A stretch of DNA of 64,000 nucleotides from Candidatus Zhuqueibacterota bacterium (GTDB lineage Bacteria; SM23-31). The position numbers and the translations under genes are program-made. This document shows positions 45,251 through 63,802 of the stretch, in pieces; within the stretch, counting starts at the first letter, position 1; each line of letters starts with the position of its first letter. The stretch covers positions 25,017 through 89,016 of the forward strand of contig JBHPLC010000002.1 in the NCBI GenBank assembly GCA_042564455.1, read 5' to 3'. Below the pieces are notes generated by a model. That model saw nothing but the letters and a program-made list of their open reading frames with translations, ran no database searches and was not told the DNA's origin.

Positions 45251-45326
45251 TCCTCGGTAGCTCAATTGGCAGAGCGGGTGGCTGTTAACCACTAGGTTGT
45301 AGGTTCGAGTCCTACCCGAGGAGCCA
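45251..45326 (+). tRNA. tRNA-Asn (anticodon GTT), CCA encoded
   Basis: Acceptor TCCTCGG pairs with CCGAGGA. Anticodon loop is CTGTTAA. T arm is GTAGG-TTCGAGT-CCTAC. Discriminator G followed by CCA. Confidence 0.92.
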
Positions 45327-46938
45327 GTCTTGACACTTGGGCGAAACAACTGTTAACCGTTTCGCCTTCTTTTTTGTTATTAACAGCTGATAAATCAAAA
45401 ACTTCCAGCGCTTCTTCCCATAAAATAACTTCAAGAACGCCTTCACCTGTTTTTGTATCCTCTGTTATTTCAATCTTTTTAACAACGGTAGGTAATAGAC
45501 GAAACAATTCGGTGGGATCAGCAGAATCTATAATCTGTGAAAAATCTTTGAGGGTTCTCGCAATCACATCAGCATTTAATGTTTTCGTTTTGATTTGTTC
45601 TTCCTCTAACTCAATTTCCTGAAACTCTTGTTTTACTACATTTAATGATTTTTGCACACTTTCAAGCTCATTTGCTACAATTTTTGCTCCTTCTGCCCCA
45701 AGTTCACGTATTGATGCGACATAGGAATCTCTTTTAACTGTCAGATCATTGATACGTTTTCGGTAAGTAACTTTTTCAGATGCGAGCTTTTTCAATACCT
45801 CGCTATTTGTTTCAATTGATTTTGAAACTATTTTATCTAACATCTCTCTATTAACACTTAACTGTCTAATCCAATCAAACACCGCTTTTTCTGTAGTCTC
45901 TGCACGTAGATTTTTTTGATTGCAAGCAATTTTCCCGACGTGATTTTTCTTAGTACATTGATAATAATCATATTTTAATCCGCCACGTCCATGAGCTGAA
46001 GAGGGCACCATAGCAGCCCCACATTTCCCGCATCTTAGAAGGCCTTTCAATAAATATACTCTATCACCACCAAGTAGTGGATTTCTTCTCGTCTCTCTGT
46101 TCTTTTCGAGAATAGATTGTACCGTTTTAAATGTCTTCTTTGGAATTATCGCCTCATGTCTACCTTTATAGATATTGTCATTATGTCTTATCATGCCAAT
46201 ATAAACAGGATTGGACAATATATTAATAACGGTCTGCTTGTTAAATATCCTTCCACCGTGCCTTTTGCCAGTCTTTGAAATATATTCAGGAGTACGATAC
46301 CCCTTTTCATTAAGCCAGTCTCTTGTTTTTCCAGCAGATCCGCACCGAATACAGGCTTTAAAGATTTCCTTAATCAGTTTTTTGCTTTCAGGATTTACAA
46401 GAAGAAGTCCTTTACGATCATTAGAAAGGTCATAGCCAGGAACACGGCTACCATTCCATAAACCCTGCTCAGCCCTCCACTGCATTTTTTCTCGTGTACG
46501 TTCCCCAGTGATCTCCCTTTCAAGTTCAGCAAACAGTAAAATCATTTTTAAACCGAACCGTCCCATAGGAATTGTTGTATCAAATTTTTCATTTTTTGAG
46601 ATGAATCCTACACCATTTGTATCAAAAAGATCCCATAGATCATAAAAATCTTTCAGTGAACGAGTAATTCTGTCAATTTTTGTGACCAATACTACATCAA
46701 CCAAACCATGTTTAATATCATTTATTAATCTTTTAAATTCGGGGCGTTCTAAGTTTTTGCCAGATTTTCCTTCTTCCCTGTAAACATCAGAAACTTCCCA
46801 AGTCTCGGGTGGTGATGGGCAAACTTCAACATATTTCCGCAATATATCTTCCTGAGTATCTAACGAACCATCAGGAGTATTAGCTTGCTGAATAGATGAA
46901 ACTCTCGTATATATTGCTACGTTCTTCGTTTCTTTCAT
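45292..46938 (-). CDS. Large serine recombinase (integrase)
   Basis: 548 aa. Resolvase catalytic domain (VAIYTRVSSIQQ...VLVTKIDRITRS), recombinase domain, zinc ribbon (CGKCGAAM...YYQCTKK...C), and a long coiled coil. The last 35 nt (LAPRVGLEPTT) overlap the 3' half of tRNA-Asn on the opposite strand. Confidence 0.88.
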   Translation of the reverse strand: MKETKNVAIYTRVSSIQQANTPDGSLDTQEDILRKYVEVCPSPPETWEVSDVYREEGKSGKNLERPEFKRLINDIKHGLVDVVLVTKIDRITRSLKDFYDLWDLFDTNGVGFISKNEKFDTTIPMGRFGLKMILLFAELEREITGERTREKMQWRAEQGLWNGSRVPGYDLSNDRKGLLLVNPESKKLIKEIFKACIRCGSAGKTRDWLNEKGYRTPEYISKTGKRHGGRIFNKQTVINILSNPVYIGMIRHNDNIYKGRHEAIIPKKTFKTVQSILEKNRETRRNPLLGGDRVYLLKGLLRCGKCGAAMVPSSAHGRGGLKYDYYQCTKKNHVGKIACNQKNLRAETTEKAVFDWIRQLSVNREMLDKIVSKSIETNSEVLKKLASEKVTYRKRINDLTVKRDSYVASIRELGAEGAKIVANELESVQKSLNVVKQEFQEIELEEEQIKTKTLNADVIARTLKDFSQIIDSADPTELFRLLPTVVKKIEITEDTKTGEGVLEVILWEEALEVFDLSAVNNKKEGETVNSCFAQVSRLAPRVGLEPTT

Positions 46939-47480: not shown

Positions 47481-47948
47481 ATGAAATTCTGGAAATTAAT
47501 ATCTGATGAGATGGATAAAGTCGGGCTCAATAAGAAACGATTAGCTGATATGGCAGGTATGTCCCGATCTACTTTGAATGTATTAGAGCAGGGTAAAGAG
47601 CCTTCTCCAGATAACAGAATGAAACTTGAAGCAGCATTTGGTTATACAATAATGAAGAAAGGAAAAGATGATTATGAGTGGGATGCCAAAATATGGGATG
47701 CACAATCTGAAGAGGTTTTAAAACTTAAAAAAATGCCCGCCAATTATAGGCTATTCAAAAGTACACATTCTAAAGTTAATATTAGAAGAAAAGGATTAAT
47801 TGATTTTAAAAACAGTAAAGATTGGATGATTGCCAATATTTCTGATGATGAGGAAGAGTGGTTAGAGAGTATTTTCTTTCGGCCTGAAAAAAATCCATCG
47901 GCTGAAACATATAAAGATTTGTTACTGATATATAGAAAACTTCAATAG
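47481..47948 (+). CDS. XRE-family helix-turn-helix regulator
   Basis: 155 aa. N-terminal HTH_3 pattern (LNKKRLADMAGMSRSTLNVLEQGKEPSPDNRMKLEAAFG). RBS AGAGGAAA. Confidence 0.75.
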   Translation: MKFWKLISDEMDKVGLNKKRLADMAGMSRSTLNVLEQGKEPSPDNRMKLEAAFGYTIMKKGKDDYEWDAKIWDAQSEEVLKLKKMPANYRLFKSTHSKVNIRRKGLIDFKNSKDWMIANISDDEEEWLESIFFRPEKNPSAETYKDLLLIYRKLQ

Positions 47949-49174: not shown

Positions 49175-52100
49175 TTATCTTAAGAGAATTAATCTCATTG
49201 TTTTTGTATTGCTGCTCGAGATCAGTTTGTAAAAGTACATTCCGCTCGAAACATCCATGCCGCTGTTGTCCTTTCCATTCCAGACTACTTTATGATAACC
49301 GGCGGATTTTTCTGTATTCACGAGGGTTCTCAACTCCTGTCCCAGTGAATTATAGATAGCCAGCTTAACATGTCCGGTCTGCGGAAGTCCGAATTCGATC
49401 GTGGTTTTCGGATTGAATGGATTTGGAAAATTCTGTTTCAGTGTATAGTCATCCGGAATAACATCGTTTTCTGTTCTTGTGTCTTTGCTGAGAACGATCT
49501 TGAATCTTCTTTGCTCCAGTCCGTCATCTGCAAGTTTTTTGGTAAAATCTGTCGGATCATCTGCAAAAAGAACTGGACCCGGTGAAGATTTGGATGTTCT
49601 TGGAATGACGTTAAATGTGAAAGAACTGTTTTTCTGCATATCAATTCTATCACCAGTCAGTTCATCTATAAGCATAAAACCAAGCTCGCTATTATCAATA
49701 TCAGGAATATCCCAGTTCACAGTAACCTGACTGGATGAACTGTTGGTCATCACAATAAAATCCCATGAAGAGCCTTCATCACTGGATTTTCTGATGTCCT
49801 GTGTGTAATATCCCGGGTTGGTTTCCCAGCCGTTATGCGGAAATGACAGCGAGATGAATTCATCGTTTAGCGAAACCAGTTCGAACACGTCTCCACGGTC
49901 AAACCTTGGATCAGCCCAGTCAGCCATTCCGATATAATTGTGCGTGTCAATATTTTCACCGCTTTCTGCGGAAATCTTCATCCGCCAATCAAGCTCTAAT
50001 AATTCACCGCCGCCCATCTTGCCGACACCCGGATAGCTTATCGTCACTTCTTCCGCATCCTGGTTGGTGCGCACCCAGAAGCCGCTCCAGGGAGCTATGG
50101 TCGAAGTCAGACTGCCGCCGGGGAGTCCGTTGCCCAGGTAAAAATCATATTCCGAACCTGTCCAGCGGTAATATACGTTATCCATTCCGCTTCCCACGGC
50201 CACATCGTCATCCCAGTCTATGTCAACTCCGTAGGGATTGCCGAGCATATGCCAGCCGTTGGAATTTGTATAGGTTAATGTGCTGGTGATGTCCGCTGTT
50301 TCCTGAAGGCCGGTGACGTCCACATTAGACGGATCAAAAGCGTAAAGTATGTACCCTGTACCGTTTGATAATTCTGTCGGTATGACCCATTCACCCAATG
50401 CTTCGTTATATTCATATATATTGGAATTGTTGGTTTCGTACCTGAACGGGGCTATGTCGTCTGAGAAGATCGATACGGGATTGACCACGTCTTCAGGAGA
50501 GACAGGAAGGCTTATCATGCTCCACCCCGGCTGCATTATGGAGGAGGAAGTCGTATCGTTAACTTCGATGACACCGTAGATCGAGAAGTGGTTGATCTTT
50601 ATCTTGACGGTATTGTCAACGTGGTTTATGACATGGTCGCCTCTAACACGCTGCCAGATCTGTTTTGCGATATCCCAGATATGCACCCGCATATTTTCCT
50701 TTTTATTCTTGACCTCAAAATCCAGGAACTCCATCGTAAGCTCTACAGAATCCCTGAAGGTAAATCCGCCTTCGGATCCTTCAACAATGAAGCTTACTGC
50801 TGACGGACACTTTTCGAGTTCCGTTATTGGAATATCAGCTTCGGACGGCTGCTGCACAATAATGCTCTTGCTGCCTATAATCGCTCCCGGCGGGATATCA
50901 ACGGCATGTTTTGTGAATACACCTCCGGAAGATATCTGAACTCTGCCCCCTAATGATGAATTAACTGCTATCGTTGTATCATTGAATACTTTTTCGTTCT
51001 TTAAATTGCGGTCGGCTACCGTGATCGTAAGAGTTTCCGCCAGGGTTAGAACACCATCGGACACATAAAACACTACCGTATATGTTCCGGCGTGCAAAAA
51101 TGAAGGATTCCAGTGGAATTTGCCTGTGTTGACATTAAAAGAAGCTACTGCTCCCGCAGGAAGTCCACTCAAGTCCGCCCAGAAGGATAAATTGCGATAA
51201 TTGCCCAACGGTGAAGTTACCTGAAACTCTATTTCTTCGCCCTCTTTAGTTGTTTTATCACCTATATGATTAAATAAAAAATTGACTGAAAATACATTAA
51301 TTGCATCATCCACTTCTGTAGCAACATAAACATGCTTATTATCCGGACTAAGTTCAACATCAACCGGTCCGTCTAAATAAGTATATCCATCAACTTCATC
51401 ACGATACATCTCTATAAAATCTAATTCACCTGTCTCTCTGTTTCTGTTGAATACACTTACAGCGTCATCAGTACGACCTCCGACAATTAGTATTCCACCG
51501 TCGGGACTGACCTTTATACCACGCGCTCCCTGTAGGCCGGTCAAGCCATCCTGCTCGTCAAAATATGACTTAACAAATGTGAGCAGACCTGTGGTCTGAT
51601 CCCTTTTTAATAAAACTATTGCATGATCCCTCTGACTGCCGCCATAAAGAAATTTCTCGTCAGGACTAATTGTAAGGTCGGTTACATTATCCAATCCATC
51701 AACACCGTCAGTATTGTCAATAACAACTTGGATCTGTGTCAATTTGCCTGTTTCTTCATCTATTCTGAATACTGCAATAGCATCCCCTGCTAAACCTGCC
51801 TGATAAAGAAATTTACCGTCAGAAGAAATCTCATTAGAACCACCCCCTCTTAGACCCGATACACCATTCTGACCTTCCAGAAGAGACTCTACGAAAGTTA
51901 ATCTGCCTGTTGCTGGATTCCTTTCAAAAACTGCCATAGAGCCTGATCCTCCATAATTAGAAATATATAAAAACTTTCCATCAGGTCTCAAGTTGCTAGT
52001 ATGTGGTCTTGACAGGCCTGAAATACCATCCTGACCGTTAAAAAGAGTTTCTAAATAAGTGAGTTTACCTGTTTTATCATCTCTTGTAAATGCAGCTACT

Positions 52101-54526
52101 GCATTTTCATTTGTTGACAGTCCGGTGGCATAAATATTCTTACCGTCCTGGCTTAAAGTAAGATCCCAGATATCATTAATACCGAGAAAACCATCAACTA
52201 AATTTTGATAAGATTCAATATAGGTAAGTTCTCCTGTGCCTGGATTCCGGGTAAAGAAGGCAATGTTATCCTCGCTATTTCCTGTAACATAAACATGTTT
52301 GCCATCAGAACTAAAGACTATTTTGCCTGTACCATTTATACCGGAAGTTAATTTCTTTACTACATTACTGAATGTTAATGTTCCTGTTGAAGAATTTCTA
52401 ATAAATTTAACTATTGTATCATCGGTATAACCAGATACATAACAATTATTGCCATCATTACTTATAGCAAATTCATATGGATTATCCATACCTGCAATTG
52501 ACTGGAGGTTGTTGTAATATGAAGTTAAATAAGTTAATTCTCCAGTAGAAGAGTTTCTGGAAAATACTACCAATGCGTCATCAAACCGGCCAACCGCATA
52601 TAAATAATTACCATCCAAACTTACCTTTAGAAAAGGTATTGTATTTAGTCCGTGTATACCACCTTCATTATTGGTATAAATGTAGTTGTTAAATGTCAGT
52701 TTACCTGTACTGGTGTTTCTTGTAAATAAAGTTATTGCATTTCGTCCATTATCTGATACATATAGATGTTTGTCATCCGGACTAATATCCAAAGTTCTTG
52801 GAACATCCAAACCAAAAAAATCATTAATACCTTCTTGATAGATATCATCAAAAGATAGGGCGCCAGTTGAATTATCTCTGCTATATGCAATAACAGAATT
52901 TGCTGAAGTAACATAAATAAAAGACCCGTCATTACTGATTACAAAACCACGTGGCCCCTCTATGCCACCGGAGCCTCCAACACCACCAACAGTAGTACTG
53001 AATACAGAATTTCCTGCGCCAGCAATCCAGCCGTTGTTTGCGTCTGTAAAATGAACTCCTTTAAGCCCTCTATCAAAAGGATGTATCTGAGTAGTCCAGG
53101 TGGTTCCACCATCTGCTGTGTAGACTATAGCGCTTTGTATGCTATTATTAAACTCACCGACGTTTCCAACCGCCCAACCTTTATTAGAATCAGCAAAATA
53201 AATATCCCATAATTTACCGTCACTTGCAATAGGTATGGTTTGTGCGGTCCAATCTGTTCCCCCATTAGTTGTTTTAAGAACTGTACTTTCATTGCCGGAA
53301 ACCCATCCGACGGTAGAACTCGTAAAATGTATTCCACGAAGTTCAACGGATGTGCCGCTAGTCTTAACCGCCCAGTTGTCGCCTCCGTCTACTGTTGCCA
53401 GAATTGTCCCGTTATTCCCGACAGCCCAGCCGTTATTAGCGTCAGTAAAAAATACGCCAAAAAGGTCTTCAGAAGTGTTGCTTGTCTGTGTATTCCAGGA
53501 AGAACCATCGGTTGTTTTGAGGATAATACCACCGCTGCCGACTACCCAACCGGTAGTGCCGTTGAAAAAATGTACTCCATAGAAATCATTCCCTAAATTA
53601 GGATTTTGTGAACCCCATGAACTACCGCCATCAGTAGATTTAATTATTGTATCATCCGAACCTACGATCCACCCATTATCAGCGTCAACAAAAAATACAG
53701 CATTAAGACTACGACCTGTACCTATTGAATAAGATTCCCAACTGCCGCCGCCATCAGCTGTTTTAATTAGAAGATCATTTTCACCTATTATCCAGACAGT
53801 ATTTGCATCAATACTGAAGACATCAGCAAAAGCAGTATTTCCACTGGTTGGCAATTCAAAAGTGTTCCATTTATAATCATTGCCTATGGTCTCAACATAT
53901 GATAATCTTCCTGTTGAAGTATTTCTGTCAAAAACAACTACTGCGTCACTAACATAACCAGTCACATAGACATGTTCATTATCCGGACTGACTTTTATAT
54001 CTAAAGCACCATTAAGACCTGGAAGTGAGATGTCGTCATTAAAATGAGTTTCCAGATACGTTAATTCTCCTGTATTAGAGTTTCTATCAAAAACAACAAC
54101 TGCATCACTAACATATGCCGCAACATATAGATTATTCCCATCCGGGCTTAATGCAATATATCTTGGAGCATCCAATCCAGCTATTATACCAGTGTTATTT
54201 TGATATCTCGCTATATAGGTTAAATCTCCACTTGATAGGTCACGGCTGAAAACAGAAATATCATCAGACACATATCCCGCAATATAAACAAACTTATCAT
54301 CCGAACTGTTTACAATACTACGAGCACCATCCAGACCCGGAATCGAATGGATCTCGGCGCCTGTTTCGACTTCGACGAATTTTAGAAGGCTGCCCTTATC
54401 GGTTTGGGCGAATATAGCAAAATTTGTAATCAGTAAACTGACCAAAATGAATAGAATTATCCTAAAGGAAGATCTTGCATGTAACATATCTTTGTTCCTT
54501 ACATAAAAGGGAATAATATATTTCAT
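49175..54526 (-). CDS. Giant secreted surface protein 1: lactonase-type beta-propeller repeats, embedded Ycf48/BNR-like propeller, Ig-like domain, ZU5-like domain (HFS), T9SS-type C-terminal sorting domain
   Basis: 1783 aa; the probable start is Met14 (54487), followed by a signal peptide. Many repeats of the SPDG..LYV..y.sD.v.VF.R...TG.LT type. W.VG..G.I..T.DGG..W repeats lie at about 52985-53870. The ZU5-like block is at 50567-50959. The C-terminus NFPNPFNPKTTIEF...GMYFYKL...RLILLR is typical of T9SS type A sorting domains. Confidence 0.85.
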   Translation of the reverse strand: MKYIIPFYVRNKDMLHARSSFRIILFILVSLLITNFAIFAQTDKGSLLKFVEVETGAEIHSIPGLDGARSIVNSSDDKFVYIAGYVSDDISVFSRDLSSGDLTYIARYQNNTGIIAGLDAPRYIALSPDGNNLYVAAYVSDAVVVFDRNSNTGELTYLETHFNDDISLPGLNGALDIKVSPDNEHVYVTGYVSDAVVVFDRNTSTGRLSYVETIGNDYKWNTFELPTSGNTAFADVFSIDANTVWIIGENDLLIKTADGGGSWESYSIGTGRSLNAVFFVDADNGWIVGSDDTIIKSTDGGSSWGSQNPNLGNDFYGVHFFNGTTGWVVGSGGIILKTTDGSSWNTQTSNTSEDLFGVFFTDANNGWAVGNNGTILATVDGGDNWAVKTSGTSVELRGIHFTSSTVGWVSGNESTVLKTTNGGTDWTAQTIPIASDGKLWDIYFADSNKGWAVGNVGEFNNSIQSAIVYTADGGTTWTTQIHPFDRGLKGVHFTDANNGWIAGAGNSVFSTTVGGVGGSGGIEGPRGFVISNDGSFIYVTSANSVIAYSRDNSTGALSFDDIYQEGINDFFGLDVPRTLDISPDDKHLYVSDNGRNAITLFTRNTSTGKLTFNNYIYTNNEGGIHGLNTIPFLKVSLDGNYLYAVGRFDDALVVFSRNSSTGELTYLTSYYNNLQSIAGMDNPYEFAISNDGNNCYVSGYTDDTIVKFIRNSSTGTLTFSNVVKKLTSGINGTGKIVFSSDGKHVYVTGNSEDNIAFFTRNPGTGELTYIESYQNLVDGFLGINDIWDLTLSQDGKNIYATGLSTNENAVAAFTRDDKTGKLTYLETLFNGQDGISGLSRPHTSNLRPDGKFLYISNYGGSGSMAVFERNPATGRLTFVESLLEGQNGVSGLRGGGSNEISSDGKFLYQAGLAGDAIAVFRIDEETGKLTQIQVVIDNTDGVDGLDNVTDLTISPDEKFLYGGSQRDHAIVLLKRDQTTGLLTFVKSYFDEQDGLTGLQGARGIKVSPDGGILIVGGRTDDAVSVFNRNRETGELDFIEMYRDEVDGYTYLDGPVDVELSPDNKHVYVATEVDDAINVFSVNFLFNHIGDKTTKEGEEIEFQVTSPLGNYRNLSFWADLSGLPAGAVASFNVNTGKFHWNPSFLHAGTYTVVFYVSDGVLTLAETLTITVADRNLKNEKVFNDTTIAVNSSLGGRVQISSGGVFTKHAVDIPPGAIIGSKSIIVQQPSEADIPITELEKCPSAVSFIVEGSEGGFTFRDSVELTMEFLDFEVKNKKENMRVHIWDIAKQIWQRVRGDHVINHVDNTVKIKINHFSIYGVIEVNDTTSSSIMQPGWSMISLPVSPEDVVNPVSIFSDDIAPFRYETNNSNIYEYNEALGEWVIPTELSNGTGYILYAFDPSNVDVTGLQETADITSTLTYTNSNGWHMLGNPYGVDIDWDDDVAVGSGMDNVYYRWTGSEYDFYLGNGLPGGSLTSTIAPWSGFWVRTNQDAEEVTISYPGVGKMGGGELLELDWRMKISAESGENIDTHNYIGMADWADPRFDRGDVFELVSLNDEFISLSFPHNGWETNPGYYTQDIRKSSDEGSSWDFIVMTNSSSSQVTVNWDIPDIDNSELGFMLIDELTGDRIDMQKNSSFTFNVIPRTSKSSPGPVLFADDPTDFTKKLADDGLEQRRFKIVLSKDTRTENDVIPDDYTLKQNFPNPFNPKTTIEFGLPQTGHVKLAIYNSLGQELRTLVNTEKSAGYHKVVWNGKDNSGMDVSSGMYFYKLISSSNTKTMRLILLR
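50567..50959 (-). other. ZU5-like domain with terminal HFS motif (giant protein 1, residues ~1190-1320)
   Basis: GGRVQISSGGVFTKHAVDIPPGAI...CPSAVSFIVEGSEGGFTFRDSVELTMEF...MRVHIWD...W..V...VKIKINHFSIYGV. The H-F-S codons are at 50582-50590. Confidence 0.55.
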
Positions 54527-55067: not shown

Positions 55068-58000
55068 TTATCTGATCAATAATAATTTCATAGTATTGAA
55101 ATAATTGCCTGATGTTATTCTGTAGAAGTAAACTCCTGTTGAAACTTCAGTTCCGAGATCATCCCTACTATCCCACATTATCGAATGATAACCCGCCTGA
55201 ACTTCCGTATTGACGAGTGTTCGGACTTTCTGCCCCAATGAGTTGAATATCACAATCCTTGTTAGTCCTGATTCGGGTATTCCATATTCGATCTTTGTTA
55301 TAGGATTGAACGGATTCGGATAATTCTGATTCAGAAAATAACTTTTTGGGACTAATTTATTTGAATCCTTAGAGAGAGTGATCGTAAAATTCCGCGATGT
55401 TACATCATCAGCCGATACTTTTTGAGTAAAATTGGTCGGATCTTCCACCCTCTCCGGTGCAGCTTCGCCGCTTTTCTGCAGAGCAGGTTTGCTGAAAGAG
55501 TAAATATTTACTGACCTCATGTCAATAATTTCACCTGATGTATTGTCTTTCATGTAGACATTGACATCAGATTCAAGTTCCTCCGGTATCTCCCAGTTCA
55601 GACTCACAAGATCATTTGAGCTGTTAGTTGCGACATCAAAATCCCATGAGATTTCATCAGAATTCGGTCTTATATCCTGTGTCAGATTAGTCGAGTTATT
55701 CAGGAAGTAAAGCGAGATAAACTCATCATTCAGAGGTGAGAGTTCATAAATGTCATGACCATCAAAACCTGTGTTTGCATTCTCTGCAACACCGAGATAG
55801 TTATGCGAATCTTTAACATAGCCGCTCTGTGCGATTATCCTCATTCTCCAGTCTGGCTTCGTGGGCTTTGAAACACCTTTTTTGTTCAGTCCCGGATAAG
55901 AAATGGTCAGTTCCTCTGCATCCATCGTAGTGTGCACCCAAAACCCCTGCCATGTTGAGATGGTTGAAGTCAGGCCTCCGTCCGGGTAAAACTCATACTC
56001 TGAGCCTGTCCAGCGGTAATAAACATTATCTGTTAACGGGTCTAATGTTACATCTGTATCCCAGTCGATATCAACTCCAAATGGATTGCCAATCAGATGC
56101 CAACCATTCGAATTAGTGTATGTTAATGAATGTGTGATATCTGCTGTTTCCACCAGTCCGTCAAGATCAATATTAGATGGATCGAAAGCATACAGAATAT
56201 ACCCCGTACCGTTATTTACTGATGAGGGTATAATCCAATCTCCCGCTGATTCATCATAAGAATATATGCTCGAATTGTTGATCTCATATCTGAATGGGTA
56301 GATATCGTCACTGAATAGTGACACGGGATCAGTACTAACGTCAAGTGTTACCGGCAGACTCACCATTCCCCAACCGGGAGACAATGTAGTCTCCTCTTCG
56401 GCTATTGATACTTCCGCCACTCCATATATTGAGAAATGCGTTGTTTTAGTTCTAACGGTGTTATTGATCCAATCTATTATATGATTGCCGCGAACTCGTT
56501 TCCACATCTGTTTCGTCTTGTCCCATTCGTGCACTCGCATATTAGATTTATCACTTTTAACTTCGAAGTCTTTGAATTCAATTGTAATTTCAACCGAATC
56601 TTCAAAAGTAAATCCGTTTTCGCTTCCCTGAACAACAAAATCTATTGCTGATGGGCAATTTTCCAACTCCTCTAAAGGTATGTCATCTAAATTAGGGGGC
56701 TGAACAATAATAATCTTATCTTCAGGTAAGGCATTTGGAGGAATTTCAACCTTATGCTTTTTGTAAAATCCAGTAGTGTCAACACTAATTGTGCCACCAG
56801 TCTCTTTTTTGAAACTCTTTGTATTAGATGCGGCTAAGCCTTTGATAAAATCAGCCTTTACCACAGTAATGGTAATTGTTTCTGAATCGGAATAATAACC
56901 GTCTTTAACGGTAAAAGTAACTTGATAAACACCAGCAGATCCAATATGAGTATTCCATTTGAAAGTAGCTAAAGTTTTGTCGTTGTTTGATTTAAAAGAA
57001 GCTCCGGCTGATTGTGGCAAATTCTCAGATGATTTTGAATAACTTCGAGACAAAATACCATCATAATTAGAAGTTACATCAAATGAGATTTTCTCACCCT
57101 CTGTATAGTTTTTATCTCCAATTGGATTAAGTTCAAGGGTAGCATAGTATTCCAGAACAAATATCTTAAAAGAGGATTCTGATGCAGCTCCCAAAGTGTC
57201 CTCAGCGCAAACTACAACTCTGTGTGTGTCCATTTGAGAGATGTTTGGCTTCCAATTTATCTCTCCCGTTAATGAATCAATACTCATTTCGAGAGGACCG
57301 TCTGTCAGAGAGAATTTAAATAAATCTCCGTCAATATCTGACGCAGTAACCACTGTTATAATTGCCTCTCCAACACCGGCAGTTATATCTGATATAGGAT
57401 CAATTTCCGGAGGCTGGTTTACATGCAGCACTGTAATATCCAGAGTATCTGCATCTTCACCTCCAAAAATATCATTTGCCTTAATAATCAAAGAATAATC
57501 ACCGCTCTGCAAAAATGATGGGGTCCAGTTTAAATCACCAGTCGTGCTGTCTAATGTTAAACCATCTGGTTTTGATCCAGAGATTGAAAAAAACAGAGAA
57601 TCTGATTCTACATCTGTTGCTGAAACCGTTAAATTCAGAGTATCTCCTTCATTAACTGTCTGGTCCTGTATATTTACTATTACCGGATGATTGTTTATAC
57701 TCAAAGTGACAGGACGGGTATACAGTGTTAAATCAGTGGCCATTGTGTTGGTTGCCTTACATATATAAACACCTGCATCTGAAGATTGTAAAGAATCGAT
57801 TGTCAGGGTACTACTGGTTGCACCAGAAATATTCGAGCCATTCTTGATCCACTGATACTGGGTAGCAGCACCTCCAGCTGACACAGTTAAAGAAAGATTG
57901 GTTCCTATTGTGACAGACGTATCTTTTGCAGCCCCAATGCTGTCCTGAGGAGAGTAATTAATACCTGTAATTCCGACATTTGGTTCTATATCTTCGAAGG

Positions 58001-60071
58001 TGAAATTGTTATTATAAATTTTTGTTGTTGTTAAGTTGGCAAGACTTGATAGATCAGGTAGAGAATCGAATCTATTATCTTGAACTTCAAAAATTATTAA
58101 ATCAGACATATTAGCAAAGCCAACTGGAACACTACCATTTAAACCAGTATTATTCAGAAAAAGGAACTTCATATTAATCAAATTACCAATTTCTTGAGGA
58201 ATTTGACCTATGAAACTATTGTTATTCAGATATAAAATCTGGATATTAATCAAATTACCAATTTCTTTTGGGATAGTGCCCGTAAACTGGTTTGAAAACA
58301 AATACAAATTAGTTAAACTTGTCATGTTACCTATTTCAGGTGGGATTTGACCAGTTAGACTATTACTATTGAGGTTAAATGTTGTTAAATTAGTGAGATT
58401 ATATAATTCCGGAGGAATTGAACCACTAAGGTCATTGCCGTTAAGCCAAAGTTCTTTCAATTTTACAAGGCTGGCTAGTTCTATGGGTATAGTGCCCGAT
58501 AAATTATTTAGGTTTAGATATAATGTCTGTAAACTGTCTAAAGTACCTAACTCGGGTGGAATTGAGCCAGTTACTCCAGTACTTTGAATCCACAAATTTG
58601 TCAAATTTGTTAAACTACCTAGCTCGGGTGGAATTGAGCCAGTTAGACTAATATCACTAAGTGATAGACTTTGTAATTTCGTAAGATTACCTAACTCTAG
58701 TGGAATAGAACCCGTTAGACTATTATAACTAAGATCTAAACTGACCAAATTAGTTAAAGTACCTAATTCTGGTGGAATTGAGCCTGATAAACTATTATGA
58801 TCTAGACCTAAATAGGTCAAATTTGTTAAAGTACTTATTTCTGGTGGAATTGAGCCGATAAGATTATTGCCACCTAAATATAAGGTTTCCAATGCTGTAA
58901 GGTTGCCAATCTCCGAAGGCATGGTACCCGTTAGATTAATAGATGAAAGAAATAACATAGTTACTCTTCCAGAAGTTACAGTTACTCCAGACCAGTCTGC
59001 TACTGAATTCCCTGCAAGCCAATTTGTTTTATCTGTCCAGTTCGCGCCATCAGTTGAATTATACAAAGCAACGAGAGCAAGTGAATCAGTTTTGACACCT
59101 GTTGACCATGTTTTAACAGCACCGTAACCACCGGCTGTAGTTATCTGCTCCTCATTACTAGTGCTAACTTCTCGTGCCCAAATATTTCCACCACGGCTAA
59201 AAACAATAAAACTATCATCCGGAGACCATATACCATTAGTGGAACCGTTATCTGTTGTTAATTGTGCAACGTTTGTAGTATTTAAGTCATACGTGAATAA
59301 GTTTAGTGATGACGATGAGCCAAAGGTAAACAGTACTTTTGATTTATCGTTAGAGACAGTTGGATAATTTTCATAAAGTGTACCTGCAGTGGAACTCCAA
59401 AGCGTCTCAGATTGCGAACCATCTGTCTTCACTTTAAAAAGTGAACAGTCATAGGATGTTCTGTTGCTTCGTGCTGTAATTGCCCAATCGGAATCTATAA
59501 AGCTTCCTGAAGCATAATCGTAGGAACTTGATACTGGGTTTGGATTGAACAACGAATAGGTCAAGGTGTTAGTATTTAACATCCAAGCAGAACCGCCAGA
59601 ACCCCAGGGTTCAAAAGCGGTTACAAGTAAAGAGTCTCCATGCCAGGCTGTAGGCAAGCTTAGGTCGAGAGAGGTAGGCACCATAGCCGCATCAGTTCCA
59701 TCTGCGTCCATTATCCACACTTGATATCTAGAGGAAGTCGCGTTGGACATGAAAGCTATTTTTGTTCCATCTGGAGATAATACTGGATATCCAACTCCAC
59801 CGGAGGAAGGTGTATAGATTGTACTCTCATTGCGAGATGCCAAATCCATCTTTACAATACTTCCAGCCTTGACAAAATAGATATCACCAACTAGACTAAA
59901 TTGCCCATAGGTATTATTAGAAAGAAATAAAACTAACAGCAATATTACTATTCTTAATTTCACATTAACCTCAAGAATTGTATTATATTGTTTTATAATG
60001 AGTAGAAACAGTAAGTCATTTATTATCGGCATGAATATCAGTATCTTTAATGATTCCCATTGAAAATTCAA
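55068..60071 (-). CDS. Giant secreted surface protein 2: PD40/TolB-like propeller, plant-type LRR array, I-set Ig, cadherin-like/putative Ig domains, ZU5-like domain (HFS), T9SS-type C-terminal sorting domain
   Basis: 1667 aa as listed; the probable true start is GTG at 59963 (VKLRIVILLLVLFLSNNTYGQ signal peptide). About 12-13 24-residue LRRs (L..L..L.L..N.L(S/T)GSIPPELG.L). QYQWIKNGSNISGATSSTLTIDSLQSSDAGVYICKATN is I-set-like. The C-terminal ~590 aa are colinear with giant protein 1. Confidence 0.85.
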   Translation of the reverse strand: MNFQWESLKILIFMPIINDLLFLLIIKQYNTILEVNVKLRIVILLLVLFLSNNTYGQFSLVGDIYFVKAGSIVKMDLASRNESTIYTPSSGGVGYPVLSPDGTKIAFMSNATSSRYQVWIMDADGTDAAMVPTSLDLSLPTAWHGDSLLVTAFEPWGSGGSAWMLNTNTLTYSLFNPNPVSSSYDYASGSFIDSDWAITARSNRTSYDCSLFKVKTDGSQSETLWSSTAGTLYENYPTVSNDKSKVLFTFGSSSSLNLFTYDLNTTNVAQLTTDNGSTNGIWSPDDSFIVFSRGGNIWAREVSTSNEEQITTAGGYGAVKTWSTGVKTDSLALVALYNSTDGANWTDKTNWLAGNSVADWSGVTVTSGRVTMLFLSSINLTGTMPSEIGNLTALETLYLGGNNLIGSIPPEISTLTNLTYLGLDHNSLSGSIPPELGTLTNLVSLDLSYNSLTGSIPLELGNLTKLQSLSLSDISLTGSIPPELGSLTNLTNLWIQSTGVTGSIPPELGTLDSLQTLYLNLNNLSGTIPIELASLVKLKELWLNGNDLSGSIPPELYNLTNLTTFNLNSNSLTGQIPPEIGNMTSLTNLYLFSNQFTGTIPKEIGNLINIQILYLNNNSFIGQIPQEIGNLINMKFLFLNNTGLNGSVPVGFANMSDLIIFEVQDNRFDSLPDLSSLANLTTTKIYNNNFTFEDIEPNVGITGINYSPQDSIGAAKDTSVTIGTNLSLTVSAGGAATQYQWIKNGSNISGATSSTLTIDSLQSSDAGVYICKATNTMATDLTLYTRPVTLSINNHPVIVNIQDQTVNEGDTLNLTVSATDVESDSLFFSISGSKPDGLTLDSTTGDLNWTPSFLQSGDYSLIIKANDIFGGEDADTLDITVLHVNQPPEIDPISDITAGVGEAIITVVTASDIDGDLFKFSLTDGPLEMSIDSLTGEINWKPNISQMDTHRVVVCAEDTLGAASESSFKIFVLEYYATLELNPIGDKNYTEGEKISFDVTSNYDGILSRSYSKSSENLPQSAGASFKSNNDKTLATFKWNTHIGSAGVYQVTFTVKDGYYSDSETITITVVKADFIKGLAASNTKSFKKETGGTISVDTTGFYKKHKVEIPPNALPEDKIIIVQPPNLDDIPLEELENCPSAIDFVVQGSENGFTFEDSVEITIEFKDFEVKSDKSNMRVHEWDKTKQMWKRVRGNHIIDWINNTVRTKTTHFSIYGVAEVSIAEEETTLSPGWGMVSLPVTLDVSTDPVSLFSDDIYPFRYEINNSSIYSYDESAGDWIIPSSVNNGTGYILYAFDPSNIDLDGLVETADITHSLTYTNSNGWHLIGNPFGVDIDWDTDVTLDPLTDNVYYRWTGSEYEFYPDGGLTSTISTWQGFWVHTTMDAEELTISYPGLNKKGVSKPTKPDWRMRIIAQSGYVKDSHNYLGVAENANTGFDGHDIYELSPLNDEFISLYFLNNSTNLTQDIRPNSDEISWDFDVATNSSNDLVSLNWEIPEELESDVNVYMKDNTSGEIIDMRSVNIYSFSKPALQKSGEAAPERVEDPTNFTQKVSADDVTSRNFTITLSKDSNKLVPKSYFLNQNYPNPFNPITKIEYGIPESGLTRIVIFNSLGQKVRTLVNTEVQAGYHSIMWDSRDDLGTEVSTGVYFYRITSGNYFNTMKLLLIR
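56417..56807 (-). other. ZU5-like domain with terminal HFS motif (giant protein 2, residues ~1089-1219)
   Basis: GGTISVDTTGFYKKHKVEIPPNAL...CPSAIDFVVQGSENGFTFEDSVEITIEF...MRVHEWD...W..V...VRTKTTHFSIYGV. The H-F-S codons are at 56430-56438. Confidence 0.55.
58005..58945 (-). repeat. Tandem 72-nt coding repeats (24-aa LRR units)
   Basis: Repeated strings such as CTCGGGTGGAATTGAGCCAGTTA (about 58552 and 58624) and GGTGGAATTGAGCC (about 58769 and 58843) recur with 72-nt periodicity. Confidence 0.85.
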
Positions 60072-60828: not shown

Positions 60829-61776
60829 TTAATTTAACAATGCGAGAATCTGTCCTCCTGTTTTCTGTAAATTGTATTGTGCAGCGGCAGTTAGCCCCTG
60901 AAATTTGGGTGCAGAAGTATATGCGTTTATCACAGAAAACATAGTATTTCCAGGCTCTGTCTCATATCCCCAAGACACTGCTGCTCTTTCATTTTCTGAA
61001 AGTTGAAATTGTCTGTTAAAAGTTTTAATCGTTTCAATCGGATTATCTACAGGCGTATCCAATGCTATCTTAAACTGTTTTTTATGCACGTTTAGATTAT
61101 CCAGGACTCTATTCATTACTTCTGGAAACTCTTCATTGATTTTCTCAGATAGATGCTTGCGCGAATATGATTCCTGTGTTTTATGAATTAGCCCATTTTG
61201 ACAAACAATCCGGTAGGTGTATGATGTTATTTTTATGGAACTGATCCCAGTTTCCGAATTAACAATTGAGGTTCCGGGAATGTACTTATCTTTCTTTATT
61301 TGAAACTGTTTCTCTTGATCGGGAATATTGATGGCCATGAGATTGTCATCAAACATAAATTCAACTGGTGCATCATTTTTGAGTCCATATTTTTCCAATA
61401 ACTCGATAATCTGAGTATTATTATATGGAACATATTTCTCAGTAAATATACTTCTGACGGAATCACCTTTGAACCGGAACAGTAAAGATTCATTGGTAAC
61501 ACTCTGCAGCCAATATTCCAGATTCTCTTTCTGGAGTTCCTCAGGACACCGTGAAATGTAATTGTGTGGAACGTTGCACCTATACGCCATAGATTTTTGA
61601 GCCATGGTCTTCATTGGATGAGTCTCTGATCCAATCTTAATTGAGTCAATGGAATTGAACGACAGGCTCCTTACAGGTATGACTTCATCTCGGCAATCTT
61701 TAGCATAATCTCTGACTTGTTCAGCGACTTTTCCTAATTTTGTTAGTTTTTTCATGTAATTTTCTCCTTTTGACAT
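60829..61776 (-). CDS. DUF932/DUF945-family phage/plasmid-like protein
   Basis: 315 aa. Overall pattern (HPMKTMAQKSMAYRCNVPHNYISRCPEELQKENLEYWL ... NSETGISSIKITSYTYRIVCQNGL) matches the family commonly found on ICEs and prophages. Confidence 0.6.
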   Translation of the reverse strand: MSKGENYMKKLTKLGKVAEQVRDYAKDCRDEVIPVRSLSFNSIDSIKIGSETHPMKTMAQKSMAYRCNVPHNYISRCPEELQKENLEYWLQSVTNESLLFRFKGDSVRSIFTEKYVPYNNTQIIELLEKYGLKNDAPVEFMFDDNLMAINIPDQEKQFQIKKDKYIPGTSIVNSETGISSIKITSYTYRIVCQNGLIHKTQESYSRKHLSEKINEEFPEVMNRVLDNLNVHKKQFKIALDTPVDNPIETIKTFNRQFQLSENERAAVSWGYETEPGNTMFSVINAYTSAPKFQGLTAAAQYNLQKTGGQILALLN

Positions 61777-61963: not shown

Positions 61964-63802
61964 CTAACTGTCACCGGTGATTTCATCAAGGAAATGACTT
62001 TTCTTCGCTGGCTGGTTAAGATACGTATGTGTCCAACTGAGGTACAGCAAAGTCATTGCGCGGCTGCATCCAACAAAACAAATCCTTCTCTCTTCCTCAA
62101 TATCTCCCTTATTTGAAGGCATGATCCCTTCAACGAGGCCAGGGATCATAACCACTTGAAACTCCAAACCCTTTGCCTTGTGTATTGTCATTAGCTTGAT
62201 TCCGTCAGTGTCGGTAGCTGAAACATCCTTGAATGTGTCAACATACTGTAAGAACAGTTCAATAGAATTGTATTTTGCTCCCGCAAGAGTCAACTGATTG
62301 ATGTTATCTATCTTGGAATCGTCAGGAGTTGGAATATCATCTTCAGAAATAAATGCGTCATAATCCAATACTTCACGTAGAATCTGTAATGTCTCCGCAG
62401 GTTCAAGCTTGCCAACATCTTTGACCAGAGGTTCAATCAGTCTAATGAAATCTTTGACATTCTTCTTCTGATAAGGGAGTGTAATTGGCATGCTCTTTAA
62501 ACCTTCATACAGGTAGATATTCTGTTCGGAGGCATACTGTTCAAGTTCTTTGATAAACTTGCGACCTAAGTATCTTGTGGGTACATTTAGAACATGTAAT
62601 AATGATTCGTCACCCTCATCAGATAAAGGATTGTTAATTACAGTAAGATAGTCCAACAGAATTTTCACTTCCCGCCTTTGATAGAAATTCATTCCATTCT
62701 CAATTACATATGGCATCTGATTCTGCGACAGGTATTCTTCCAAAATTCTGGACTGAAAGTTACATCTATACAGTATGGCTATATCCGAATGCTTAAATCC
62801 CCGCTCCAGAAGTTCTTTTATCTCATTCACAATATTGATCGCTTCTCCTTCTTCTGATGATGATTCAATTATGATTACATCGTCGCCATCTTTATTCTCA
62901 GTGCGGAATTCTTTTTCTGTCCGTTTCTCATTGTGCTGAATAAGGTTCTGGCAGGCTTTCAATATCTGGGGAGTGCTTCTGTAGTTTAAGCTGAGAATGT
63001 ATTGTTTAACATGGGATGACAGGTTTTGAACGTCATACATCAAATCTGGGCGTGTCCCGGTGAATCCGTAAATTGACTGATCAGGATCGCCTACAACAAA
63101 AAGGCTTGAACCGTTGTCAGTATTCCCGGCAATTAATTTCAGTATTTCCATCTGTACAACATTAGCATCCTGAGCCTCATCCTGAGAAATATGAAGGAAT
63201 TTTTTCTGGTAGTATTGTCTTATTTCTGTATTCTCTGAAAGTAATTTATAAGCCTCAAGCAACAGATCGTCAAAATCATATCTCAGTTTCTTCTGTTTGT
63301 CTGATTCATATTCCTCATAAACCTGTGCGATTTTATCATAAGTTTTATCACCTGCATGGAGTATCTTAAATTCTGCGACATTAATAAGGTTGTTCTTAGC
63401 GAGTGAAATTTCTCTGAGAACCAATCCAACTGAAATATTTCTTATCCTTAATCTTTTTAATATGGTCTTAATGAATATTATCTGTTCTTTTCCTGTGAGA
63501 AGCTCAAAGACTCGTCCGGAATGTTTAAGTAGATGCAGACAGAAACTGTGTATTGTCATCAGTTTAACATGTTGCGCCTGTTCCTTAAGTTCTGGTTCAA
63601 GCCTTTCTTTCATTGTATATGCGGCGTTATTGGTAAAAGTGAGTCCAAGTATCTGTGTGGGATCAACGTCATGTTTTTGAACAAGATTACTGATTCGTCC
63701 GATTAACGTCCTTGTCTTTCCTCCTCCTGGTGGAGATTCTACAATAATGATTCCAGTATAAATTTGAGCGGCTTCAGATTGTTCTTCATTCAGTTCTATC
63801 AT
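61964..63802 (-). CDS. UvrD/PcrA-type superfamily 1 DNA helicase
   Basis: 612 aa. Strong RBS (AAAGGAGGT). Walker A SPPGGGKT, motif II DEAQD, motif III VGDPDQSIYGFTG, LNYRSTPQIL, TIHKAKGLEF, CFVGCSRA. Confidence 0.88.
   Translation of the reverse strand: MIELNEEQSEAAQIYTGIIIVESPPGGGKTRTLIGRISNLVQKHDVDPTQILGLTFTNNAAYTMKERLEPELKEQAQHVKLMTIHSFCLHLLKHSGRVFELLTGKEQIIFIKTILKRLRIRNISVGLVLREISLAKNNLINVAEFKILHAGDKTYDKIAQVYEEYESDKQKKLRYDFDDLLLEAYKLLSENTEIRQYYQKKFLHISQDEAQDANVVQMEILKLIAGNTDNGSSLFVVGDPDQSIYGFTGTRPDLMYDVQNLSSHVKQYILSLNYRSTPQILKACQNLIQHNEKRTEKEFRTENKDGDDVIIIESSSEEGEAINIVNEIKELLERGFKHSDIAILYRCNFQSRILEEYLSQNQMPYVIENGMNFYQRREVKILLDYLTVINNPLSDEGDESLLHVLNVPTRYLGRKFIKELEQYASEQNIYLYEGLKSMPITLPYQKKNVKDFIRLIEPLVKDVGKLEPAETLQILREVLDYDAFISEDDIPTPDDSKIDNINQLTLAGAKYNSIELFLQYVDTFKDVSATDTDGIKLMTIHKAKGLEFQVVMIPGLVEGIMPSNKGDIEEERRICFVGCSRAMTLLYLSWTHTYLNQPAKKSHFLDEITGDS

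Follow-up and report, generated by a model that had tools for sequence, protein, structure and literature searches.

The ZU5 domain of UNC5CL cleaves its own backbone within an HFS tripeptide (HF|S), and in GAIN domains the cleavage site lies between the last two strands. CwpV of Clostridioides difficile and SEA domains also undergo self-cleavage by an N-to-O acyl shift, with the two halves being kept together non-covalently on the surface. PIDD and Nup98 self-cleave at HFS as well. Self-cleaving domains of the ZU5, GAIN and Nup98 types have central roles in apoptosis, inflammasome and adhesion G-protein-coupled receptor (GPCR) signalling in animals, and their proposed bacterial origin has been argued from sequence analysis alone. 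Zhang et al. (Zhang, de Souza, Anantharaman, Iyer and Aravind, Biol Direct 2012; PMC3482391) united ZU5, GPS and Nup98 in a ZU5 superfamily, predicted ZU5 autopeptidases in bacterial polymorphic toxins and described their relatives in large surface proteins that also bear adhesion and enzymatic modules, in which such processing may be general. The present analysis concerns a 64,000-nucleotide stretch of DNA (the window) from a Candidatus Zhuqueibacterota bacterium (contig JBHPLC010000002.1, positions 25,017 to 89,016), which encodes two giant paralogous proteins, p1 and p2, each carrying HFS at the end of a ZU5-like segment.

The original prediction for this DNA had placed the ZU5-like segment of p1 at residues 1190–1320 (nt 50959–50567) with HFS at residues 1313–1315 (nt 50590–50582), and these positions were found to be correct. 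All quoted strings, i.e., LGGRVQISSGGVFTKHAVDIPPGAII, CPSAVSFIVEGSEGGFTFRDSVELTMEF and KINHFSIYGV, were present in p1 (in short, LGG...DIPPGAII; CPSAVSF...GGFTF...VELTMEF; KINHFSIYGV). The claimed conservation of the motif in the paralog was likewise confirmed, p2 having KTTHFSIYGV with HFS at residues 1212–1214, and the tripeptide occurred only twice, in p1 and p2, among the window open reading frames (ORFs) longer than 150 amino acids (aa). A cut after F1314 would leave, exactly as had been calculated, 469 residues ending in a type IX secretion system (T9SS) sorting domain (TIGR04183, 36.9 bits with a cut-off of 23 bits). Residue numbers of p1 and p2 refer to the longest ORF, as in the original prediction.

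The ZU5-like domain of p1 and p2

No ZU5 domain was detected in the whole-protein Pfam scan of p1 and p2. When the 150-aa segment of p1 was scanned in isolation, Pfam ZU5 (PF00791) was the top match (E = 0.01, 16.5 bits, gathering score 21) and the match was colinear, covering profile positions 6–91 of 97. A phmmer search of the PDB sequences with the p1 segment returned nothing meaningful, and a family profile was needed. With the p1 and p2 alignment as query, 1.84 billion representative proteins were searched exhaustively with HMMER, which gave 97 proteins at E < 1e-3. Alignment A2 comprised 63 domain segments keeping H, F/L or S/T at the motif, with seven motif-less matches being left out.

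Pfam ZU5 matched 24 of the 63 members of A2 at E < 0.1 (best E = 5.4e-7) and no other family recurred; Nucleoporin2 gave one marginal match (E = 0.087). Three full-length relatives (P0039, P0041 and P0077) reached 27–37 bits for ZU5, above the gathering score, and precomputed PF00791 labels were found on several relatives, one of them with a T9SS tail. The A2 profile confronted with all PDB sequences detected the ZU5 chains of ankyrin-3, ankyrin-2 and ankyrin-1 (E = 3.7e-6 to 5.3e-5) and of ZO-1 (E = 1.2e-3), and no other match was significant. Adhesion GPCR F1 was matched marginally at its GPS end (E~0.1; profile positions 110–148), and these GPS-region matches covered exactly the motif-bearing end. 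The ZU5 assignment of the original prediction was thus sub-threshold on p1 itself, but it held for relatives above the gathering score and for the family profile in the PDB.

The word-indexed homolog search with a 320-aa segment of p1 returned a single protein, covered only in the module downstream of ZU5, whereas the 63-row profile gave 29 short proteins and a profile of the downstream module gave three. The depth of the alignments used for AlphaFold2 was limited thereby. A pattern scan of the GTDB genomes with the closer alignment A6 identified one locus.

The AlphaFold2 model of p1 residues 1170–1345, built on a 31-row alignment, had a mean predicted local distance difference test score (pLDDT) of 87.7 and a predicted template modelling score (pTM) of 0.80. 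In the Foldseek search of the PDB, ranks 1–16 were all occupied by ankyrin or ZO-1 ZU5 domains (E = 4e-5 to 5e-3, probability 1.00) with target-normalised template modelling (TM) scores of 0.5–0.6. They were followed by the GAIN domains of BAI3, GPR56 and CD97 (4dlo, 5kvm and 8ikj) and the FIIND of rat NLRP1 (7crw; E = 0.016, probability 0.99). The predicted fold therefore resembles ZU5 domains best and GAIN and NLRP1 FIIND next. The sequence identity of the p1 segment to solved ZU5 domains was 11–19%. Because three independent lines, the hidden Markov model (HMM) matches, the profile comparison with the PDB and the fold search, agree, the reading of residues ~1184–1321 of p1, and of the corresponding stretch of p2, as a beta-sandwich of the ZU5 superfamily is supported by both sequence and model.

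Position and conservation of the HFS motif

DSSP, applied to the two AlphaFold2 models, assigned a long strand ending at F1314, with S1315 as the sole non-strand residue and the strand IYGVIE (residues 1316–1321) following in each. This last strand was modelled as part of the ZU5 domain with a pLDDT of ~97. As modelled, HFS is located where the penultimate strand gives way to the last one. Relatives known to cleave themselves have their site at this point too, and the placement of HFS in p1 matches that reported by D'Osualdo et al. for Nup98 and CARD8.

Conservation was evaluated in an alignment of 110 homologous domains, consisting of 81 domains from the representative search and 29 word-index matches. 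The aligned tripeptide was HFS in 75 of them, HLS in 13, HFT in 10 and HLT in one, so that H-[FL]-[ST] was kept in 99 of 110 (90%), and the conservation of the motif expected among wider homologs was found. Counted by position, H was present in 100 homologs, F or L in 108 and S or T in 102. Among ~150 columns, H ranked second in conservation, F fifth and S sixth, and in the 31-row alignment the H and S of the motif were invariant. The motif was missing in the remaining 11 homologs, which had KFN, KLN, RFN, KTN, LLD and others at this position. Several of the motif-less homologs ranked high (E = 2e-10 and 2e-9) and covered most of the profile. The ZU5 fold can thus exist without HFS, which argues that the conservation of HFS elsewhere is functional. 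Members that kept and lost the motif parallel the cleaving and non-cleaving ZU5 and GAIN domains of animals.

Some relatives carried two tandem copies of the domain. In P0030, P0031, P0038, P0052, P0063 and P0090, HFS was replaced by KFN, KLN, RFN, KTN or LLD, and this subfamily presumably represents non-cleaving ZU5 variants. In P0027, P0029, P0057 and P0107, each of the two copies had HFS, as in PIDD. Other relatives (P0117–P0127, P0102 and P0119) were small stand-alone ZU5 proteins of 150–280 aa with lipoprotein-like N-termini composed of a hydrophobic stretch and a Cys; the tails of 6–8 residues in stand-alone relatives are fitted by no explanation so far.

By analogy with known self-cleaving domains, the ZU5 domain of p1 and p2 probably acts as a one-shot, enzyme-independent autopeptidase. 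In accordance with the chemistry of Nup98, PIDD, FIIND and GAIN domains, folding in the periplasm would bury Phe1314 and strain the backbone, Ser1315 would attack the Phe1314 carbonyl with the assistance of His1313 in an N-to-O acyl shift, and the ester formed at Phe1314 would then be hydrolysed. The N-terminal product would have ~1270 aa after signal-peptide removal and would contain the propeller head, the Ig domain and most of ZU5. The C-terminal product of 469 aa would start with SIYGVIE, the last ZU5 strand, followed by a conserved ~370-aa module and the T9SS sorting domain. Since the last strand would not leave the ZU5 sandwich, non-covalent docking of the two fragments is expected to persist. 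Export of the docked complex would proceed through the T9SS, and the C-terminal fragment would mediate its anchoring or release, with the head being a pre-cut detachable unit that could later dissociate. Shedding or force release of the head, also put forward in the original prediction, would be plausible by analogy to GAIN domains.

A number of observations speak against self-cleavage. The Pfam ZU5 profile gave no match on the p2 segment at E ≤ 10 and stayed below the gathering score on p1, and the Foldseek TM scores were moderate (~0.5–0.6) with a root-mean-square deviation of ~5 Å. The ZU5 domain of ZO-1, for which no cleavage is known, also ends with ...DHF, and the His of HFS was shown by mutagenesis to be only marginally needed in Nup98 (PMC3210808). 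Many of the small stand-alone relatives stop 6–8 residues past HFS (e.g., ...INHFSRYAVAY), where a cut would free just the hexapeptide strand, and the conservation of HFS may be partly structural. Cleavage has been shown for no bacterial ZU5 domain in the literature searched.

The weak Pfam score on p1, its absence on p2 and the low identity to solved ZU5 domains might also be expected of a generic Ig-like or other beta-sandwich domain in which HFS is coincidental. Such convergence is hardly credible, as the HMM, the PDB profile and the fold search all pointed to ZU5, GAIN and FIIND and to nothing else, and the motif was kept in nine tenths of the homologs. A chance resemblance was rejected on this agreement of the HMM, profile and fold evidence.

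The ZO-1 ending, the marginal requirement for His in Nup98 and the stand-alone relatives, for which cleavage has no obvious use, would rather suit a non-cleaving ZU5 domain serving as a scaffold or binding module, as in ankyrin, UNC5A-D and ZO-1, with HFS being kept because a buried Phe and the residues beside it would stabilise the last hairpin. The best sequence and structure matches were indeed the non-cleaving ZU5 domains of ankyrin and ZO-1. However, no PIDD or UNC5CL ZU5 chain appeared in either PDB search and the PDB coverage is biased, so a non-cleaving best match carries little weight. Ankyrin and UNC5B do not keep the motif residues, UNC5B having Leu at the Phe position. Moreover, the relatives that kept the fold without the motif changed all three positions together (KFN, KLN, RFN or LLD), which resembles the loss of a catalytic site, whereas elsewhere the nucleophile position was S or T in nearly all homologs and H formed the second most conserved column. 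A non-cleaving role of the domain is considered less likely than self-cleavage.

A different outcome of the acyl shift would be a transfer of the ester, in which a sugar hydroxyl or an amine of lipopolysaccharide (LPS), peptidoglycan or another protein would attack the ester and bind the N-terminal fragment covalently at its new C-terminus, with the residues past HFS departing as the leaving group, as in the cholesterol transfer of Hedgehog. The relatives that stop shortly past HFS look like a domain with a short leaving peptide, the domain adjoins sorting or anchoring signals in many architectures, and the ester intermediate has been described as open to a second nucleophile. On the other hand, no ZU5, GAIN or Nup98 member is known to resolve its ester by transfer, and the window gives no hint of an acceptor. 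The piece following HFS in p1 and p2 is large, conserved (469 aa) and equipped with an export signal, and does not appear to be disposable. Such a transfer is therefore regarded as very improbable in comparison with the hydrolysis described above.

The p1/p2 locus offers a compact and easily expressed bacterial case with a canonical HFS, on which the claim of a bacterial origin can be tested directly. If cleavage does occur, part of the T9SS cargo would be presented as complexes of two non-covalently bound chains, and attachment, shedding and proteomic signatures would have to be re-read. The domain would then also constitute a joint that breaks mechanically and needs no protease, which could be of use in protein engineering. 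If no cleavage takes place, the conservation of HFS alone would prove to be an unreliable predictor of cleavage.

The C-terminal cassette and the p1/p2 locus

The last 709 aa of p1 and p2 were 51% identical, starting from residue 1085 of p1 (nt 51274) and residue 981 of p2 (nt 57131). This cassette of ~700 aa consists of a He_PIG Ig domain, ZU5, a ~370-aa module and the T9SS sorting domain, in this order (Table 1). It is preceded in p1 by a signal-peptide-like N-terminus and beta-propellers of the lactonase and BNR/Ycf48 types. The head of p2 is unrelated to that of p1 and comprises a PD40/DPPIV propeller, leucine-rich repeats, Ig and He_PIG.

Table 1. Positions of p1, p2, their domains and the flanking genes in the window.
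Feature	Position (nt)	Strand	Residues	Remarks
p1 (giant protein 1)	49175..54526	minus	1783 aa	By longest ORF
ZU5-fold domain of p1	50564..50977	minus	~1184–1321	Predicted beta-sandwich of ~12 strands; Pfam, PDB profile, AlphaFold2, Foldseek
H1313-F1314-S1315 of p1	50582..50590	minus	1313–1315	Predicted autoproteolytic site, scissile bond F1314-S1315
He_PIG-type Ig domain of p1	51017..51268	minus	1087–1170	First cassette element
~370-aa conserved module of p1	49457..50539	minus	~1330–1690	Between ZU5 and T9SS tail
Type A T9SS sorting domain of p1	49187..49429	minus	1700–1780	TIGR04183, 36.9 bits; Pfam Por_Secre_tail, FlgD_ig
p2 (paralog of p1)	55068..60071	minus	1667 aa	By longest ORF
ZU5-fold domain of p2	56412..56825	minus	~1083–1220	By alignment to p1
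H1212-F1213-S1214 of p2	56430..56438	minus	1212–1214	Aligns with HFS of p1
~370-aa conserved module of p2	55323-56400	minus		Same position in cassette
Type A T9SS sorting domain of p2	55083..55322	minus	1584–1663	TIGR04183, 38 bits
Flanking gene	45292-46938	minus		
Flanking gene	47481-47948	plus		
Flanking gene	60829-61776	minus		
Flanking gene	61964-63802	minus		

The ~370-aa module (GWNMVSLPV...NSSIY.Y...NGWHLLGNPY...YPGGGLT...DWR.QI.A.SG...TQDIR) had no Pfam match and its profile had no match in the PDB. It was conserved in about 20 relatives with a mean column identity of 48% and constitutes an undescribed domain family. In the AlphaFold2 model of p1 residues 1176–1700, the ZU5 part was again confident, residues ~1326–1512 had a pLDDT below 50 and the second half of the module was predicted as a partly confident beta-sandwich. 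Unlike in the ZU5-UPA architecture of FIIND, which the original prediction had mentioned, no UPA domain was detected on the 469-aa fragment (Pfam, E ≤ 10) or on 20 homologous modules (E ≤ 1). An identity with FIIND (ZU5-UPA) was rejected, as no UPA domain adjoins ZU5, and the resemblance is consequently to single ZU5 autopeptidases (PIDD and UNC5CL).

About 20 close relatives carried the same cassette under other heads, including an M6 metallopeptidase and LVIVD propellers, and nearly all of them had 417–471 residues after the motif. Across the ZU5 family, the heads comprised M6 peptidase, LVIVD, NHL and Kelch propellers, NosD beta-helix and Big_2. In more distant relatives, the ZU5 domain with HFS was located ~20–30 residues before the T9SS sorting domain, and in others before a dockerin or another C-terminal signal. 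A T9SS-like NxPNPF signature, used as a motif proxy, was found downstream in 31 of the 80 motif-bearing matches, and a Pfam scan of 17 relatives verified the T9SS domain in 13 of them.

A 2185-bp stretch was present in 100% identical form at two distant places (L001 and L002, 7490-9674) of a 3.78-Mb contig (ena:ERZ26167216 ctg495822). It encodes a partial Ig domain, ZU5, the downstream module and the T9SS tail, and is joined to two unrelated heads. The cassette seems to move, or to be converted, as a unit. Both copies had an in-frame TGA at a near-invariant Trp of ZU5 (NMRVHI*D in comparison with NMRVHIWD in the window), which may be a nonsense mutation, making the copies pseudogenes, or may be recoded.

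A broader role can be put forward only tentatively. ZU5 domains with HFS placed before a T9SS C-terminal domain (CTD), a dockerin or another anchor might form a widespread bacterial counterpart of the pre-cut joint of GAIN and SEA domains, in which the cargo would be exported as two docked chains, the large head would be displayed on a short anchored stub and could be shed by force or unfolding without a protease, and the cassette would be swapped between genes as a unit. In a rarer variant, the ester intermediate would serve to attach the head covalently to an acceptor on the surface. This generalisation is more doubtful than the cleavage of p1 and p2 itself.

In the NCBI records, both proteins are assigned to candidate division KSB1 and lack a ZU5 label. 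p1 (MFC1553148.1, 1770 aa) is named 'beta-propeller fold lactonase family protein' and starts at M14 (nt 54487), and p2 (MFC1553150.1, 1631 aa) is named 'putative Ig domain-containing protein'. The starts of the longest ORFs (ATG at 54526 for p1 and TTG at 60071 for p2) lie upstream of the NCBI starts, the regions of difference being 54487-54526 and 59964-60071. The NCBI starts put what looks like a typical signal peptide at the N-terminus; the sequence MLHARSSFRIILFILVSLLITNFAIFAQ, counted from the NCBI start, was judged signal-peptide-like by inspection only. The pair is flanked by genes encoding a large serine recombinase (Resolvase, Recombinase and Zn-ribbon domains), an HTH_3 protein, a DUF932 protein and a UvrD-type helicase. 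Since integrative mobile elements typically carry such genes, the p1/p2 pair may be located in or beside one.

Comparison with known self-cleaving systems

PIDD1 and UNC5CL share with p1 the tripeptide at the C-terminal end of ZU5 and the N-to-O acyl shift by Ser, which is predicted for p1. They differ in being cytosolic proteins of animal signalling with death domains, and PIDD has two tandem sites that yield distinct fragments, whereas p1 is predicted to be extracytoplasmic and has a single site. The FIIND of NLRP1 and CARD8 (SF|S) resembles p1 in the ZU5-like fold, in cleavage before Ser and in the association of the fragments after cleavage, the latter two being presumed for p1. In contrast, p1 has HFS instead of SFS, no UPA, no CARD and no proteasome/DPP9 release. 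Nup98 (peptidase S59, HF|S) shares the HFS tripeptide, has a buried Phe and is a member of the ZU5 superfamily according to Zhang et al. (PMC3482391). It is, however, a nuclear pore protein and gave no significant sequence or Foldseek match to p1.

GAIN domains, with the GPS motif HL|T/S of adhesion GPCRs and polycystin-1, provide the best functional analogy. They are extracellular, anchor-proximal beta-sandwiches cut between the last two strands, with the last strand embedded and a large adhesive head held non-covalently on the anchored stalk. p1 differs in lacking the helical subdomain A and the Cys-x-Cys disulfides of GPS, in its T9SS/LPS anchor instead of a seven-transmembrane region and in that no tethered-agonist role is conceivable. 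GPS had no Pfam match on the p1 and p2 segments or on the 63 family members, and no Cys was present near the motif. The p1 model was all-beta save for short helices, and only its sandwich, similar to subdomain B, matched GAIN, more weakly than ZU5. An identity with GAIN was rejected on the missing GPS cysteines and helical subdomain. The folds and motifs of CwpV (G|T) and SEA domains (G|SVVV) are unrelated to p1, and CwpV has a Gram-positive cell-wall anchor.

A link between ZU5 and T9SS cargo and the Ig-ZU5-module-CTD cassette were not found in the literature searched. The ZU5 proteins of Zhang et al. and p1/p2 are alike in their bacterial secreted or surface context, the ZU5-superfamily fold and the predicted self-processing. 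In the toxins, ZU5 is N-terminal and linked to SpvB/RHS and TcdB/TcaC export, whereas in p1 and p2 it is located near the C-terminus within a T9SS cassette. p1 and p2 thus belong to the kind of proteins predicted computationally in 2012, to which the coupling with T9SS and the conserved cassette are added here.

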